Virus record (IMG/VR): IMGVR_UViG_3300032331_002826
Coordinates: 1-64,000 of that record
Length of the DNA stretch: 64,000 nt
Source: a virus
Direction: 5' to 3' (one strand)
Under the pieces are notes generated by a model, which was given only the letters and a program-made list of their open reading frames with translations, searched no databases and was not told the DNA's origin. Positions 58,750-63,393 of the stretch are shown piece by piece (position 1 is the stretch's first letter; the number at the start of each line of letters is the position of its first letter). The position numbers and the translations under genes were made by a program.

Positions 58750-58910
58750 ACAGACTACTCCTCACTTCTATTCTGAGGGGAAGTTAACCCCAAGTCTACC
58801 TCACGGCGTAGACCGCCTTACTCAAGTTTCGAAACAATTCAAGTTTCTACTTTTATGTCGAGTGCGCCCATGTATCCATACTAAGGGCAATTTATTGAGT
58901 CATCGTCTGT
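58750..58910 (-). ncRNA. Unassigned multi-stem structured RNA (about 160 nt)
   Basis: Closing helix ACAGAC/GUCUGU; internal ACUCAA/UUGAGU, GCCC/GGGC, GAAAC/GUUUC, GUCUAC/GUAGAC and CCUCA/UGAGG; lies between a stop codon and a terminator. Confidence 0.5.
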
Positions 58911-59116
58911 CAAACATCTTCTTCTTCAACTGGATTTTTGATGGTTGGAGAAATTGCTTCAGCTTCTTCTACAACTGCTTTAATCTCATTCTCCAAATCT
59001 TTTATCTTCTCTTTATATCCAGCGGAGATATCCTTAAAATCTTTCTTAGTGAAGATCAACTTTTCAGTAAGTTCGTAAACTTTCTTTTCTGCTTCTGATT
59101 TAGATATTGTAACCAT
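58910..59116 (-). CDS. Small coiled-coil hypothetical protein
   Basis: 68-aa ORF. Confidence 0.6.
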   Translation of the reverse strand: MVTISKSEAEKKVYELTEKLIFTKKDFKDISAGYKEKIKDLENEIKAVVEEAEAISPTIKNPVEEEDV

Positions 59117-59180
59117 TTTAATGTATAACCTTTCTATGTAATAACTATTGGTATGTGTAACTAAACTGTCGGAAAAAAAT

Positions 59181-59571
59181 TGGTGGACGTGGCGGGATTC
59201 GAACCCGCGTCTTCAAAAATATATTCTACATCAGACTACACGCTTATGAATTTTTTGACCGCACAACAACCATAATCTAAAATCCCAAACTTATGATTGT
59301 TTATGTTTGTAAGTTTCAACAACATATCCAAACTATATGTCATCAAGCCTGATAGAGTACACCCAACACAATTATCAGACATCGTTGTATTGGATGTGCA
59401 GCAACTTAAGCTGCGAGTAGTGCAACGTCTTCTCTCTTAGAAGTGAAGTCGTAGCTGATTACTTTGCTTTTCTTAGCATTTATTTTTTGAACAGATGATT
59501 AAAGAGGCCGACCGTTCATCCTCTGCGTGCCTAACATGAACTAATCTTTGAATCGAGACCAGTACACGCCC
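59181..59571 (-). ncRNA. ssrA: tmRNA
   Basis: 5' GGGCGUG pairs with 3' CACGUCC-A-CCA with G3:U70; T-arm GCGGG-UUCGAAU-CCCGC; resume context AUAAAU-GCU; tag AKKSKVISYDFTSKREDVALLAA-stop (59477..59406). Confidence 0.93.
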
Positions 59572-59597
59572 AAATTTTGAAAGAACAACTATAAGTA

Positions 59598-60227
59598 TCA
59601 GATCGATTTAGGATCGTATCCGAATTTCATAAATGCATCATGATAGAAATGAGCAACAATGTCAATCTCTTTTTGAGTATAATAACTCTGCCAATCACTT
59701 AACGTTGGATTGTTTTTATTCCTTCTCAGAATAAACTCGGGTCCAGAACCTCCACTTTCAGTGTAACTATTTTGAACAAGTTGATTTTGAATTATAGATT
59801 GAACATTCGGATCTTTTAAATCCACAAAAGGAATTTTGGCAAGATCTTCCATATAATTTTCAATCCTAACATAGATGTCTGGTTGTTTTTTGTATGTTAG
59901 AATTGGAGAAAATTCACCCATTCCTGTCATACCTGATACCCATTCTGGAAAAGTCTGACGTATGATGATATTATTGTTTTCATCGATGTCAAAATTCCTC
60001 CAATGCCAAACAGATAAAACGTGTGAATATGGATTACGTACATTACATATCACCAAATAATCGTCACACCCCGCCGGTATTCCTATCTCATGAGTTCCTT
60101 GCTCTTTGATGTGACATTGACTTGCAGCGTTGTAAAAATCGTAGTATTCCAAAATGTAAGACATCGATCTACTGGCTGTACGAGGCGGCAACCACCACAC
60201 CGCTTTATGTTTATGATTTACAAGCAT
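59598..60227 (-). CDS. Sulfotransferase family 2-like protein
   Basis: WLPPRTASRS (5'-PSB-like), VRNPYS..LS (3'-PB), RIEN, YHDAFMKFGY. Confidence 0.75.
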   Translation of the reverse strand: MLVNHKHKAVWWLPPRTASRSMSYILEYYDFYNAASQCHIKEQGTHEIGIPAGCDDYLVICNVRNPYSHVLSVWHWRNFDIDENNNIIIRQTFPEWVSGMTGMGEFSPILTYKKQPDIYVRIENYMEDLAKIPFVDLKDPNVQSIIQNQLVQNSYTESGGSGPEFILRRNKNNPTLSDWQSYYTQKEIDIVAHFYHDAFMKFGYDPKSI

Positions 60228-60308
60228 ATTATGTATCCTATATCGAATACATATGTTTATGTTGAGTAATATTCAGAAAGAAATGTCTGAATTAATATCT
60301 AACAAATT

Positions 60309-60382
60309 TGGAGCGGGTAGTGGGAATCGAACCCACACATCAACCTTGGCAAGGTCGAAGGCTACCACTACATCATACCCGC
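60309..60382 (-). tRNA. tRNA-Gly(GCC)
   Basis: Cloverleaf, anticodon loop UU-GCC-AA, U73-CCA. Confidence 0.93.
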
Positions 60383-60394
60383 ATTATTAAAATT

Positions 60395-60470
60395 TGGTGG
60401 ACCAGACAGGACTCGAACCTGCCACATTCTGCTTGCAAAGCAGACGCTCTACCAGATGAGCTACTGGCCC
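60395..60470 (-). tRNA. tRNA-Ala(TGC)
   Basis: Cloverleaf, G3:U70, CCA. Confidence 0.95.
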
Positions 60471-60500
60471 ATTTAATATCACCAATACATAGTGATAAAA

Positions 60501-60603
60501 AATTGAAAAAAACACAAACCGTGCTATTATACGCTAAAAAGCAATGCGGCACATGCGCCCAAACCCTTACGGAATCCTCCTATCGGGTGTTTGTGTTTTC
60601 AAT
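60501..60603 (-). ncRNA. Unassigned structured RNA (about 100 nt, three-way junction)
   Basis: Closing helix AAAACACAAAC/GUUUGUGUUUU; inner CCCGA..GUAA-loop..UUGGG and GUGC/GCAC arms. Confidence 0.45.
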
Positions 60604-60759
60604 TGGATGACCGTGACTTGCGAATATATGGGGATTTCACGAAAAACGTTCCTAGTATTGAACAGGACATGATCCACTGTTCACCAGTCTATCCCACCAA
60701 CTTCAGTCTCTTATACCCTCCCACGGGTATCGTGCATTAATTCTATACACCAACGATCA
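60604..60759 (-). ncRNA. tRNA-like RNA with about 85-nt structured insertion in place of the T-loop
   Basis: 7-bp acceptor UGAUCGU/ACGGUCA + U-CCA; D-arm GUGUA/UGCAC; AUACCC-GUGGGA-GGGUAU arm; GACU/AGUC stem enclosing nested hairpins. Confidence 0.6.
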
Positions 60760-60764
60760 AATTT

Positions 60765-61121
60765 TTAATCTCCTTTTTGGAGTCGAATACTATCTTCATC
60801 AAAATGTTGTGTACTGAATTCAAACAACTCAGTGTCTTCAATTGCATACATTTGATGTTTCAGTCCAATTGGAATATGAAAATGGTCACCCTTGTTTAAT
60901 GCAACAGATGTAGACTTATTAATATCATCGTGCCAACCATAATACAATATAATCTTTCCACTTTGGACATAAAATGTTTCATCCTTAATTTTGTGATAGT
61001 GCCAACTACACTTTCGATCCTTCACAAGATAAAGAATCTTGCCACAATACTTTTCATTGTTGACAATCCACTTTTCAAATCCCCATCCCTTCGGTACAAT
61101 ATGTAATCTTTGGTAATCCAT
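60765..61121 (-). CDS. Cupin (mannose-6-phosphate isomerase type II C-terminal-like)
   Basis: PKGWGFEKWI, SWHYHKIKDETFYV, IPIGLKH, EFST. Confidence 0.8.
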   Translation of the reverse strand: MDYQRLHIVPKGWGFEKWIVNNEKYCGKILYLVKDRKCSWHYHKIKDETFYVQSGKIILYYGWHDDINKSTSVALNKGDHFHIPIGLKHQMYAIEDTELFEFSTQHFDEDSIRLQKGD

Positions 61122-61128
61122 AAATTAA

Positions 61129-61416
61129 TTTGACACAGCCGTAGCCGATGTTCTGTTCTATTCCTACATTTATCTCAATATCTCTATTGGTCATCCATTA
61201 AAGATGACTGCTCCAACCTTGTCCTGATAACGTGCAGCACTACACTCGGACACTTTAGGATTACTGCTAATTTGTGGTGTTAACGAGGGGGACTATCACA
61301 ATGAAGTGGTCTTAGCCGATTTGGACTCGGTTTACAATGCCCTCTCCCAATCATCTGCTGTGCAGCATCGAACTTCCTCTAGGATATTATCCCAGCGTAG
61401 GATCGCTTATGTCAAA
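61129..61416 (-). ncRNA. rnpB: RNase P RNA (short, type A-like)
   Basis: P1 UUUGACAUA-A-GC/GCUGUGUCAAA; P2 UCCUAC/GUAGGA; P3 CUGGGAU/AUCCUAG; CR-I GAGGAAGUUCGAUG pairs (P4, bulged U) with CR-V ACAGAACAUCGGCUA; CR-IV AGAUAAAUG; GAGA-capped P18. Confidence 0.85.
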
Positions 61417-61438
61417 ATTTCAGTCAGTGTTTGATAAA

Positions 61439-62635: not shown

Positions 62636-62638
62636 ATT

Positions 62639-62716
62639 TGGTGGCGACGACAGGATTCGAACCTGCACTACCGGAGTTCTCAACCCCGTGACTCCTTCCA
62701 GTTGGTCTACGTCACC
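62639..62716 (-). tRNA. tRNA-Leu(GAG), short variable loop
   Basis: CGGGG-UUGAGAA-CUCCG; 5-nt variable loop; A73-CCA. Confidence 0.88.
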
Positions 62717-62734
62717 ATATCAAAGATCAAAAAT

Positions 62735-62808
62735 TGGTCGGCCACGTCAGAATTGAACTGACTCTCTATGCTCCCAAAGCACACGTGCTACCGTAACACT
62801 TGTGACCG
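62735..62808 (-). tRNA. tRNA-Pro(TGG), second copy
   Basis: UGUGC-UUUGGGA-GCAUA; C1-G72; A73-CCA. Confidence 0.88.
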
Positions 62809-62815
62809 ATTAAAA

Positions 62816-62893
62816 TGGTCGGAGTGACAGGATTTGAACCTGCAACTTCTTGCTCCCAAAGCAAGCGCTCTAGCCAAGTTGAGCTACACTCCG
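62816..62893 (-). tRNA. tRNA-Pro(TGG), canonical third copy
   Basis: CUUGC-UUUGGGA-GCAAG; canonical arms; CCA. Confidence 0.95.
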
Positions 62894-62902
62894 ATAATAC
62901 TG

Positions 62903-63082
62903 TTACTCTACATTCAACAACTTCAAATACTTATTCTCAGGTTCAGGGAAGATACTGTCAGCAACCTTCTTGATTGCCATGTAGTAACTATACGTTGGAA
63001 ACCTCTCCAACATCATCCTGTTTCTAAGGTACTCGAACTGTACCTCGTTGTCAACATCATTCTTCAAGTTGTAATCAGACAT
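62903..63082 (-). CDS. Small hypothetical protein (59 aa) inside tRNA array
   Basis: MSDYNLKNDVDNEVQFEYLRNRMMLERFPTYSYYMAIKKVADSIFPEPENKYLKLLNVE; fills the gap between two tRNAs. Confidence 0.55.
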   Translation of the reverse strand: MSDYNLKNDVDNEVQFEYLRNRMMLERFPTYSYYMAIKKVADSIFPEPENKYLKLLNVE

Positions 63083-63100
63083 ATTTTCTTTTGTTAAAAA

Positions 63101-63176
63101 TGGTACGTGGGGAGGGACTCGAACCCCCGATAGGCACGGTGTAAACGTGCTACTTTGGCCACTAAGCTACCCACGC
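63101..63176 (-). tRNA. tRNA-Val(TAC)
   Basis: GCACG-UUUACAC-CGUGC; A73-CCA. Confidence 0.93.
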
Positions 63177-63193
63177 ATCTCAGTTGTTCATAC

Positions 63194-63221
63194 ATACTAA
63201 CACCAAATTTCAAATTGTCAA
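63194..63221 (-). promoter_or_regulatory. Sigma70-type promoter TTGACA-N16-TAGTAT driving the tRNA array
   Basis: Perfect -35 box, TGn-extended -10 box. Confidence 0.7.
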
Positions 63222-63230
63222 GGAACTATG

Positions 63231-63268
63231 AAAAAGAAAAAACCGTTGGTTTTTAGACCAACGGTTTT
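63231..63268 (-). terminator. Rho-independent terminator
   Basis: aaaaccgttggt-ttttag-accaacggtttt followed by a U-tract on the minus strand. Confidence 0.85.
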
Positions 63269-63284
63269 GAAACTTACCTTCAAC

Positions 63285-63354
63285 CGTCGATCCGTCTAGC
63301 CGAGGCTAGGTTGTGGGGCAGCACTTAGAAGTGCTGAGACCAAACTGGATGACG
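63285..63354. ncRNA. Unassigned GC-rich structured RNA (about 70 nt)
   Basis: CGTC-G-ATCC/GGAT-GACG closing; CTAGC/GCTAG and CAGCACT/AGTGCTG hairpins; lies between a late-type motif (near 63377) and a terminator. Confidence 0.45.
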
Positions 63355-63393
63355 ACAACTGAATGTTCATACGACAATACATATCACGAAAAA

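Follow-up and report, generated by a model that had tools for sequence, protein, structure and literature searches.

In the tRNA region of bacteriophage T4, two small stable RNAs are encoded, RNAC and RNAD (species 1 and 2), the role of which is still unknown (PMC3014915) and which are classed as late RNAs (PMC9697503). GOLLD and ROOL are structured phage and prophage RNAs without an assigned function that often lie near tRNA islands and are sometimes linked to tRNAs (PMC5737381; bioRxiv 10.1101/2024.12.08.627333), and pheL is an example of a ribosome-mediated leader-peptide attenuator (PMC3082878). A limited literature search yielded no description of a leader-peptide attenuator of tRNA genes, of a tRNA mimic in which the T arm is rebuilt or of a phage-encoded RNase P RNA. 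The locus described here, positions 58,750 to 63,370 of the IMG/VR virus record IMGVR_UViG_3300032331_002826, harbours six structured RNA elements, designated E1 to E6. The stretch analysed (the window) comprises the initial 64 kb of this 74-kb record, which was judged to be ∼28% complete. Its source is a large uncultivated T4-like freshwater phage, and the span is a part of the stable-RNA gene island of that phage.

The six elements are genuine, whether as RNA genes or as RNA signals, and represent five or six unrelated new families. The whole is best explained, with a probability of roughly 0.6, as a stable-RNA island with multiple promoters, in which some of the new RNAs would be released by tRNA processing and E6 would be cis-regulatory. 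Like the RNAs of this island, RNAC and RNAD are extra small RNAs located among the tRNA genes of a T4-like phage and made together with the tRNAs. They are, however, two RNAs as opposed to five or six families, differ in architecture, and E1, E2+E3 and E5 show no sequence similarity to them, there being no blastn match in the GenBank phage collection. GOLLD (RF02032) and ROOL (RF03087) are likewise phage structured RNAs situated by tRNA islands, and the present contig has a GOLLD of its own; yet these are multimeric cages of 500–800 nucleotides (nt), whereas the elements described here are 56–160 nt long, unrelated to them in sequence and fold, and E1–E6 match neither model.

All six elements were found where a first-pass annotation of the sequence had placed them, on the minus strand like the tRNAs, and the gaps between the tRNAs, the transfer-messenger RNA (tmRNA) and the RNase P-like RNA do hold conserved structured RNAs, with homologues and maintained helices. 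The same annotation had proposed folding energy relative to shuffled sequence as one check of the elements and conservation as another. By the former, a modest gain over dinucleotide shuffles was obtained for E6 (z = -3.9), E5 (-2.4), E2 (-2.1) and E1 (-2.0), whereas E3 and E4 (both -1.0) would fail if judged on single-sequence folding alone. Since single-sequence folding was not suggestive for E3 and E4, relatives were collected, using the neighbouring GT2 and 209-amino-acid (aa) proteins as well as IMG/VR scans with the conserved cores of E3, E5, E6 and E1. A scan of viral contigs with a single protein gave no match; alignment-based scans did yield relatives. Related loci and contigs are referred to by L-numbers, L147 being the rest of the same contig and L150 and L151 Flavobacterium rnpB loci.

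The second check proved far more informative: homologues of all six elements are present in related IMG/VR or metagenome contigs of uncultivated freshwater phages, and their helices are kept through double-sided changes. Column shuffles (500) and structures slid by 1–3 columns served as controls. For E3, 98% of the cells are paired, and 9 pairs with double changes, in 43 cells, were counted against 5.0 and 10.2 after shuffling, a level reached by 0–1 of 500 shuffles; in the slid controls just 18–51% of the cells of the E3 helices remained paired. None of the 500 shuffles reached the values observed for E1 (95% of cells paired, 12 of 41 pairs double-changed, shuffled 4.3), E5 (96.7%, 6 double-changed pairs, shuffled 1.5) or E6 (95.4%, 5 double-changed pairs, shuffled 1.4). 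For E4 (95% of cells paired), the 3 double-changed pairs were equalled in 34/500 shuffles and the 7 cells, against 2.1 expected, in 0/500; for E2 all cells are paired and the 2 varying pairs were matched in 49/500. E1, E3 and E5 are thus strongly supported and E6 is well supported; the support is moderate for E4 and weak for E2. The minus strand is the functional one, because conserved G-U pairs would become C-A mismatches on the opposite strand, and indels of lengths not divisible by three exclude a coding role for E1, E3 and E5. In the Rfam 15 search of the window only tRNA and tmRNA models reached the threshold, and at E values up to 10 merely noise overlapped E1–E6; blastn of E1, E2+E3 and E5 against 50,697 GenBank phage records gave no match. 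The elements had been taken for undescribed ones, and by these searches they are. Their conservation, secondary structure, strand and placement are matters of observation.

E6 (63285–63354, minus strand) is a Y-shaped fold contained within an open reading frame (ORF) at 63296–63370 (minus strand) of 24 codons plus TAG (MNIQLSSSSLVSALLSAAPQPSLG), which is preceded by ATATGTATTG at 63375–63384. The closing stem of E6 (63347–63354 with 63285–63293) would play the part of region 1:2. Its 3' strand, 63285–63293, overlaps GACGGUUGAA (63279–63288), which can pair with the 5' arm (63261–63271) of an intrinsic terminator at 63237–63268 (minus strand) and so constitutes a candidate antiterminator. The 1:2, 2:3 and 3:4 pairings overlap as classical attenuators demand. 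The ACGGU/ACCGU core of the antiterminator is invariant in 7 sequences, and masking of the first 60 nt makes the antiterminator the minimum-free-energy fold in the window. Seven distinct E6/leader sequences are known, among which the length, start and stop of the ORF survive an in-frame 3-nt indel; a pattern scan for E6 returned 16 distinct sequences, 9 of them chance matches in unrelated coding-looking sequence. Hairpin 1 of E6 has a wholly different sequence in the window and in the relatives, and is paired in both.

The composition of the leader peptide is what connects it to the tRNA genes that follow. Past the first residues only Ser, Leu, Ala, Pro, Val, Gln and Gly occur in it, and the tRNAs of the array that follows are specific for precisely these seven; 20–21 of its 22–23 residues fall into this set, as compared to 43.5% in the phage proteome (P ∼2e-6; 0 of 20,000 shuffles). 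The downstream tRNAs serve 21/23 of the leader codons (P = 5e-7), and the leader in turn samples 11/11 of the downstream anticodons in the window and from 8/9 to 10/11 in relatives. Even the single Gly codon corresponds, being GGC where the array has tRNA-Gly(GCC), in the window, and GGA in relatives with tRNA-Gly(UCC) arrays. E6 is therefore most likely to be a cis-acting leader-peptide attenuator rather than a released small RNA, as far as can be judged from sequence. As in trpL, hisL and pheL/pheM, there is a short ORF rich in the codons to be sensed, four overlapping segments and a terminator with a U-run. It differs from them in being phage-borne and in targeting tRNAs instead of genes of amino-acid biosynthesis or synthetases; its leader samples about eleven tRNA species, whereas classical attenuator leaders repeat one codon. 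A ribosome stalled in the near-leaderless 24-codon ORF would open the Y-fold of E6 and expose GACGGUUGAA; the freed GACGGUUGAA would pair with the 5' arm of the terminator, resulting in read-through into the tRNA array, and a ribosome at the leader stop codon would cover GACGGUUGAA and let the terminator form. The wider proposal, that of a tRNA operon governed by a ribosome-mediated attenuator sensing all downstream tRNA species and carrying in addition the CCA-ended mimic E3, in some relatives located 3' of an RNase P-like RNA, is put forward tentatively, its odds being somewhat below even.

Two observations speak against such an attenuator. The antiterminator of the relatives has just 6–7 base pairs (bp) and is never the minimum-free-energy fold when the leader is masked (L060), and the sigma-70-like promoter before tRNA-Val is downstream of the E6 terminator, so that the attenuator would govern only those transcripts that start upstream. 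Both also favour another explanation, according to which E6 is a small structured mRNA or 3'-untranslated-region (3'-UTR) element of the GDP-sugar epimerase gene followed by a normal terminator, and the match between peptide and tRNAs is a by-product of GC-rich hairpins, in the stems of which codons for Ser, Ala, Pro, Leu and Gly are favoured. The leader ORF, however, is the sole open frame of six in all five translated homologues; the other five frames of the same hairpins each contain stops and have only 26–57% of residues in the set. Besides, neither the maintenance of ORF length, start and stop through the 3-nt indel, nor the agreement of the Gly codon with the downstream Gly anticodon, nor the absence from the leader of Thr, Arg, Asp, Glu and His, whose tRNAs reside in other arrays, sits well with a by-product, which for these reasons appears less likely.

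The sequence ATATGTATTG occurs on the minus strand both at 63375–63384 and at 61666–61675, 4–8 nt 5' of the starts of the leader ORF and of a 72-aa ORF, respectively, and is kept in relatives. It may be a late-type promoter yielding near-leaderless mRNAs. When WTATGTATTG was examined as a phage promoter, only 2 exact sites were found, a number equalled in 13/100 shuffles, and hence no enrichment.

E3 (60604–60759, minus strand) has the shape of a tRNA, with an acceptor stem of 7 bp and a U-CCA end but a replaced T arm, and its 23-nt core (3 degenerate positions allowed) is found exactly in 43 IMG/VR contigs. Its structure was derived by RNAalifold and pair counts from an alignment (A4) of 25 distinct sequences. 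The acceptor stem (columns 6–12/181–187) is paired in 100% of cases, with U1-A72, G2-C71 and A3-U70 invariant and the other four of the seven positions covarying; 23/25 sequences end in U73-CCA, and the AAUU trailer is the same as that of every tRNA of the island. A D-like arm is followed by a hairpin in the anticodon position, the stem of which covaries, while its loop, the least conserved part of the molecule, is 6–8 nt long and variable in sequence (GUGGGA, AUAGGA, AUUAGGA, AGUUGA); this is not the 7-nt anticodon loop of a tRNA, with its conserved U33 and defined anticodon. In the T position, a 3–4-bp stem runs into a long irregular helix (∼13 bp) with a nearly invariant apical domain that carries a variable inserted hairpin. 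No 5-bp T stem with a 7-nt T-loop is present there, and ARAGORN and Rfam (E up to 10) are silent at this site. Indels are located in the apical hairpins and spare the core.

Since E3 keeps the tRNA shape but has a variable loop and no defined anticodon, it should be unable to decode. It is probably a non-decoding tRNA mimic, in the model of which the invariant replacement of the T arm would be the likely working surface for binding a protein or an RNA. By its acceptor stem and 3' CCA, E3 resembles tmRNA, and it would therefore be expected to enter the routes of tRNA 5' and 3' processing. The resemblance ends there: the anticodon arm is missing from tmRNA and its T arm retained, whereas in E3 the reverse is true, a D-like arm and an anticodon-position hairpin being present and the T arm replaced, and E3 has neither the G3-U70 pair nor the mRNA-like part of tmRNA. 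Comparison was extended to other tRNA mimics, namely the bacterial Y RNA YrlA and the tRNA-like structures of plant viruses; YrlA is closed by a Ro-binding stem and not by an acceptor stem.

A covariance model of E3 (R1) finds one copy per phage and grazes long-arm tRNAs at 18–24 bits; no paralogues were detected with it in the window, in the remaining contig or in the Flavobacterium rnpB loci. An RNase P-like CR-V motif occurs within 420 nt upstream of E3 in 4/49 loci and directly abuts it in L045. More often than the RNase P-like RNA, one of two conserved non-coding modules, X (ending in GGATAGGGTTGA) or Y (ending in GCCAAGGNGTCTGGGATAA), stands directly upstream of E3 (L005, L044, L047 and others), and in L067 (9320–9560) the sequence of Y forms an insertion of ∼115 nt in the RNase P-like RNA, right before CR-IV. 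The E3 core itself, at 60618–60640 (GUGAAAUCC..GUAUAUUCGCA), resembles the P5 3' strand and J5/15 of Flavobacterium RNase P RNA (GGUGAAAUUUCAAGUAUAUCGGCA), a likeness which could be due to chance or to shared ancestry. Among 185,579 prokaryote genomes, the core had a single match, L107 (NZ_JBMOGV010000185.1), a 2.9-kb sequence with five tRNAs binned in a Flavobacterium metagenome-assembled genome. L107 is probably a phage fragment, too weak a basis for a host call and at best a faint hint at Flavobacterium.

Downstream of E3 lies E2 (60506–60595, minus strand), a four-way junction in which a 7-bp closing stem (CACAAAC/GUUUGUG) encloses three hairpins and a single strand of 13 nt, followed by a U-run. 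It was found in 10 loci, each of which has the E3 core within 110 nt upstream (10/10), and is optional, being absent from L006, L044 and others. Its 7 distinct sequences are nearly invariant, with two compensatory pairs (C-G to G-C, G-C to U-A) in the closing stem and one hairpin. E2 has the look of a branched terminator, or else of an RNA that accompanies E3 on its 3' side, and the degree of its conservation would argue for something beyond termination.

E5 (62178–62276, minus strand) is also a four-way junction, made up of an 11-bp closing helix and three hairpins and represented by 8 distinct sequences (alignment A9), which has neither a CCA end nor the loop sizes of a tRNA. It begins 4 nt past the CCA of tRNA-Ala and in relatives stops ∼10 nt short of a tRNA-Ser or tRNA-Leu-type gene; as tRNAs border it on both sides, tRNA processing would release it. 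Like E5, E4 has tRNAs on either side, in the window as well as in relatives. This hairpin (61952–62007, minus strand) lies in the spacer before tRNA-Ser(GCU), always precedes that tRNA and carries the invariant unpaired UUGAAGAAAUC. Across 10 distinct sequences (alignment A5), CCGA/UCGG changes to CUGA/UCAG and GGAC/GUCC to AGAC/GUCU or GAAC/GUUC. The 5' half and the loop can at the same time be read as a sigma-70-like promoter, TTGACN-16/17-TAnnnT, which in the window is TTGACT-16-TAAAAT at 62007–61980. Because both halves of E4 covary, an RNA containing both should matter, and only a read-through precursor fits this; E4 is accordingly best read as a putative hairpin of the processing or leader type with a second use as a promoter. 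In P1 of the RNase P-like RNA (61404–61415) as well as in E4 (62002–62007), the 5' strand of a helix, paired with UGUCAA, is at the same time a TTGACA hexamer with the score of a -35 element.

At the other end of the span, E1 (58750–58910, minus strand) is a multi-branch RNA of ∼160 nt, in which ACAGAC/GUCUGU forms the closing stem around five inner helices. It is located after tmRNA and a 68-aa ORF and immediately before the intrinsic terminator of the tmRNA-orf68-E1 unit (58717–58744, minus strand; an 11-bp stem with a T-run), which is conserved in relatives. Homologues of E1 are present in L002–L004, L143 and L058, giving five distinct sequences from three lineages, and in the three lineages examined (window, L058, L143) the element is downstream of tmRNA. 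A motif scan for E1 hit 40 contigs, mostly in a protein gene encoding SMDTWG, and L143 was the only new true homologue. A riboswitch for the GT2 gene was considered and rejected, as the more distant relatives L007 and L037 lack E1 but keep the terminator; no strand able to pair with a terminator arm was seen in E1. The tmRNA itself (59181–59571, minus strand; ARAGORN; Rfam RF00023, 133 bits) specifies a 23-residue tag ending in ALLAA, and no smpB was seen in the window. In 33 loci, the 68-aa coiled-coil-like ORF (58910–59116, minus strand) is conserved between tmRNA and what follows, be it E1 or the terminator.

The region 61130–61415 (minus strand), which had been called RNase P, is accepted as a remodelled homologue of RNase P RNA, putative as a ribozyme. 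CR-I (61366–61380), CR-IV (61167–61176), CR-V (61141–61156) and P1–P3 are present, and P4, formed by CR-I and CR-V, has the bulged U, AG(U)UCGAUG pairing with CAUCGGCU; in L058 the corresponding UCGCUG/CAGCGG is compensatory. The RNA is conserved in L045, L058 and L067, with compensatory changes of P4 and P3 in L058 and L045. The catalytic-domain landmarks are present, but the molecule is remodelled, its specificity domain is replaced and Rfam does not see it. Aligned with Flavobacterium rnpB, the phage RNA matches in CR-I, CR-IV and CR-V and has no counterpart of CR-II and CR-III of the specificity domain. Relative to the bacterial type-A RNA (RF00010), it thereby shares CR-I, CR-IV, CR-V, the bulged-U P4 and P1–P3, without CR-II and CR-III. 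No match to RF00010 was obtained in the contig or in the isolated stretch at E up to 10, while 6/7 Flavobacterium genomes scored above the cut-off, with 177–200 bits.

Presence in RNA libraries was observed for several elements of the span, which are covered by lake metatranscriptome contigs from four runs of four studies. E1 is covered by X15 rec1 (58713–58865) and X18 rec24 (58717–58836), which come from different studies and show zero mismatches, E2 and the 3' part of E3 by X18 rec28 (60507–60654), E4 by X17 rec19 (61934–62089) and E5 by X16 rec12 and X17 rec21 (two runs), and tmRNA by contigs in three runs. One contig, X16 rec16, bridges 63110–63353 and thus E6, the terminator and tRNA-Val, which fits read-through but is no proof of it. 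The 209-aa ORF and most of the RNase P-like RNA have zero cover, from which nothing is inferred. Bins of high depth at 60427–60583 and 61526–61682 fall outside the listed contig pieces; the former is taken to represent tRNA-like contigs of other organisms.

As to transcription, the span contains at least three sigma-70-like promoters, two clear intrinsic terminators and the U-run after E2. Two of the promoters precede tRNA-Ser(UGA) (62133–62160, minus strand; TTGACA-16-TATACT, 11/12) and tRNA-Val (63194–63221, minus strand; TTGACA-16-TAGTAT, 10/12). With several promoters and terminators inside it, the span must comprise several transcription units, and the single polycistron postulated by the first-pass annotation is not supported. 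Its further suggestion that tRNA processing sets the elements free suits the placement of at least E3, E4 and E5, but not E6, the likely cis attenuator; and while new conserved RNAs are indeed encoded, they do not make up one set of small non-coding RNAs, being heterogeneous and including E4, a spacer or leader hairpin, and the probably cis-acting E6. The original idea was, in short, partly right: E1–E6 would be tied to tRNA processing in part, as a mixed set from several transcription units, the mechanisms being read from anatomy.

For biogenesis and function, we infer the following course. Several promoters would drive precursors in which tRNAs alternate with the extra RNAs. RNase P, of the host or of the phage, would cut 5' of each tRNA and of E3, given its tRNA-like acceptor stem and encoded CCA. 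Cleavage past the CCA-AAUU trailers would free the 3' ends, so that E3 and E5 would be released and E4 severed from tRNA-Ser, and termination would set the 3' ends of E1, by its hairpin and U-run, and of E2, by its closing stem and U-run.

Several facts weigh against the reading of the span as an island of new RNA families. The z-scores of E3 and E4 are weak, and the alignments of E1, E5 and E6 comprise 5–8 distinct sequences each, mostly from two or three lineages. Because E2 is almost invariant, its covariation test is low in power and the structure barely tested, and the conservation of E4, whose helix coincides with a promoter-like site, may in part be that of a DNA signal. The RNA evidence consists of assembled contigs without strand or ends, in which DNA carry-over is possible, and is supportive only.

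Another assumption is that the elements are ordinary operon punctuation, i.e., terminators, promoters, processing hairpins and 3'-UTR structures, which would be without a role after the tRNAs have been produced. E1, E2 and E6 do end at or beside a U-run or terminator, E4 does overlap a promoter-like site, and E1 and E2 are optional and missing in some relatives. Mere punctuation would hardly account, however, for the stretch from E2 to the tRNA being 81% identical to L037 when the neighbouring protein is only 43% identical, nor for 22–41 pairs and invariant unpaired segments, which exceed the needs of a terminator or cleavage site, nor for the acceptor stem and CCA end of E3. This explanation is considered improbable.

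Equally hard to sustain is the view that one polycistronic system supplies small RNAs for translation rescue or as anti-defence decoys, for instance against tRNA-cleaving nucleases. Phage tRNAs can counter tRNA-targeting defences, the elements do lie among tRNAs and tmRNA, and E3 mimics a tRNA. Yet the span has several promoters and terminators, E6 behaves as a cis element, and none of the elements has a linked gene for defence or counter-defence. A role of E3 as a decoy of an anticodon nuclease in particular is disfavoured, as the loop at the anticodon position varies freely in both length and sequence, unlike what such a decoy would need. Finally, that E3, E5 and perhaps E2 are decaying tRNA pseudogenes from array duplication is very improbable: the four-way junctions are cloverleaf-like, E3 still has an acceptor stem, D-like arm and CCA, long-arm tRNAs give faint R1 scores (18–24 bits) and the island has a degenerate tRNA-Pro paralogue, but in many lineages compensatory change maintains the helices, conservation is highest in the parts foreign to tRNA (as the 23-nt core of E3 in 43 contigs) and indels are confined to the apical hairpins outside the core.

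The setting of the new families, preferred here as components of an island with several promoters, can be followed along the minus strand, on which every gene of the span is encoded. The end of the GDP-sugar epimerase gene is followed by ATATGTATTG, the 24-codon ORF with E6 and the terminator (63237–63268); then come a sigma-70-like promoter, tRNA-Val and a 59-aa ORF; seven tRNAs (Pro, Pro, four Leu, Ala), E5, a promoter and tRNA-Ser(UGA); E4, tRNA-Ser(GCU), tRNA-Gln, the tRNA-Pro-like gene (61685–61760) and the 72-aa ORF; the RNase P-like RNA (61130–61415), the cupin ORF, E3, E2 with its U-run, tRNA-Ala and tRNA-Gly; and, last, the 209-aa ORF, tmRNA, the 68-aa ORF, E1, the terminator (58717–58744) and the GT2 glycosyltransferase gene. 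The tRNA-Pro(UGG)-like gene (minus strand) is non-canonical, with the T-loop UGCGAAA, and is missed by ARAGORN and Rfam. Its acceptor, CGGAGUG/CACUCCG with ACCA, is the same as in the tRNA-Pro at 62816–62893; the gene occurs in 9 loci, and CGGGAUG/CAUCCCG of relatives represents a compensatory change of the acceptor.

In total, 13 tRNAs and tmRNA were detected in the window (ARAGORN, Rfam) and 19 further tRNAs in the remaining, upstream part of the contig, which brings the total of the contig to 32; tRNAs for Thr, Arg, Lys, Asp, Glu, His, Cys and Met sit in its other arrays. The window genes include those for a T4-type major head protein and an SbcCD-like nuclease, the cupin gene is the only one resembling those of cultured cyanomyoviruses, and near-identical DNA is contained in freshwater and lake metagenomes. 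The GOLLD RNA (RF02032; contig 68717–69180, L147:5717–6180, minus strand; 203 bits, E 1e-56) lies 5 kb past the window, with tRNA-Thr(UGU) embedded in it and many GCAA-capped helices in its stretch. The CyVA-1 RNA motif (RF02965) has a weak match at L147:9320–9396 (minus strand), between two tRNA-Arg genes, with 28.7 bits against a gathering threshold of 41.4 (E 0.005). CCA-AAUUU ends which were not called as tRNAs are seen in L147 at contig positions 73981, 73894, 73806, 73534 and 68312, and one of the segments with such an end is a 169-nt element between tRNA-Glu and tRNA-Met. By these uncalled ends, the island may hold further tRNA-like or CCA-ended RNAs.

For decades, the extra stable RNAs of phage tRNA clusters have lacked an explanation, first RNAC and RNAD of T4 and later GOLLD and ROOL. 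To these, the island adds five or six families supported by covariation, each with a secondary structure, in a single lineage of abundant lake phages. Among them, E3 offers a natural means of probing the requirements of RNase P and of the CCA-adding and 3'-processing enzymes, and the phage appears to bring along its own RNase P-like RNA, a putative ribozyme with a replaced specificity domain. If the attenuator reading of E6 is true, the phage would raise the transcription of its own tRNA array when those tRNAs decode slowly, that is, by a translation-sensed feedback on tRNA supply, and these would be, as far as the literature searched shows, the first tRNA genes to be regulated by translational sensing of their own products.

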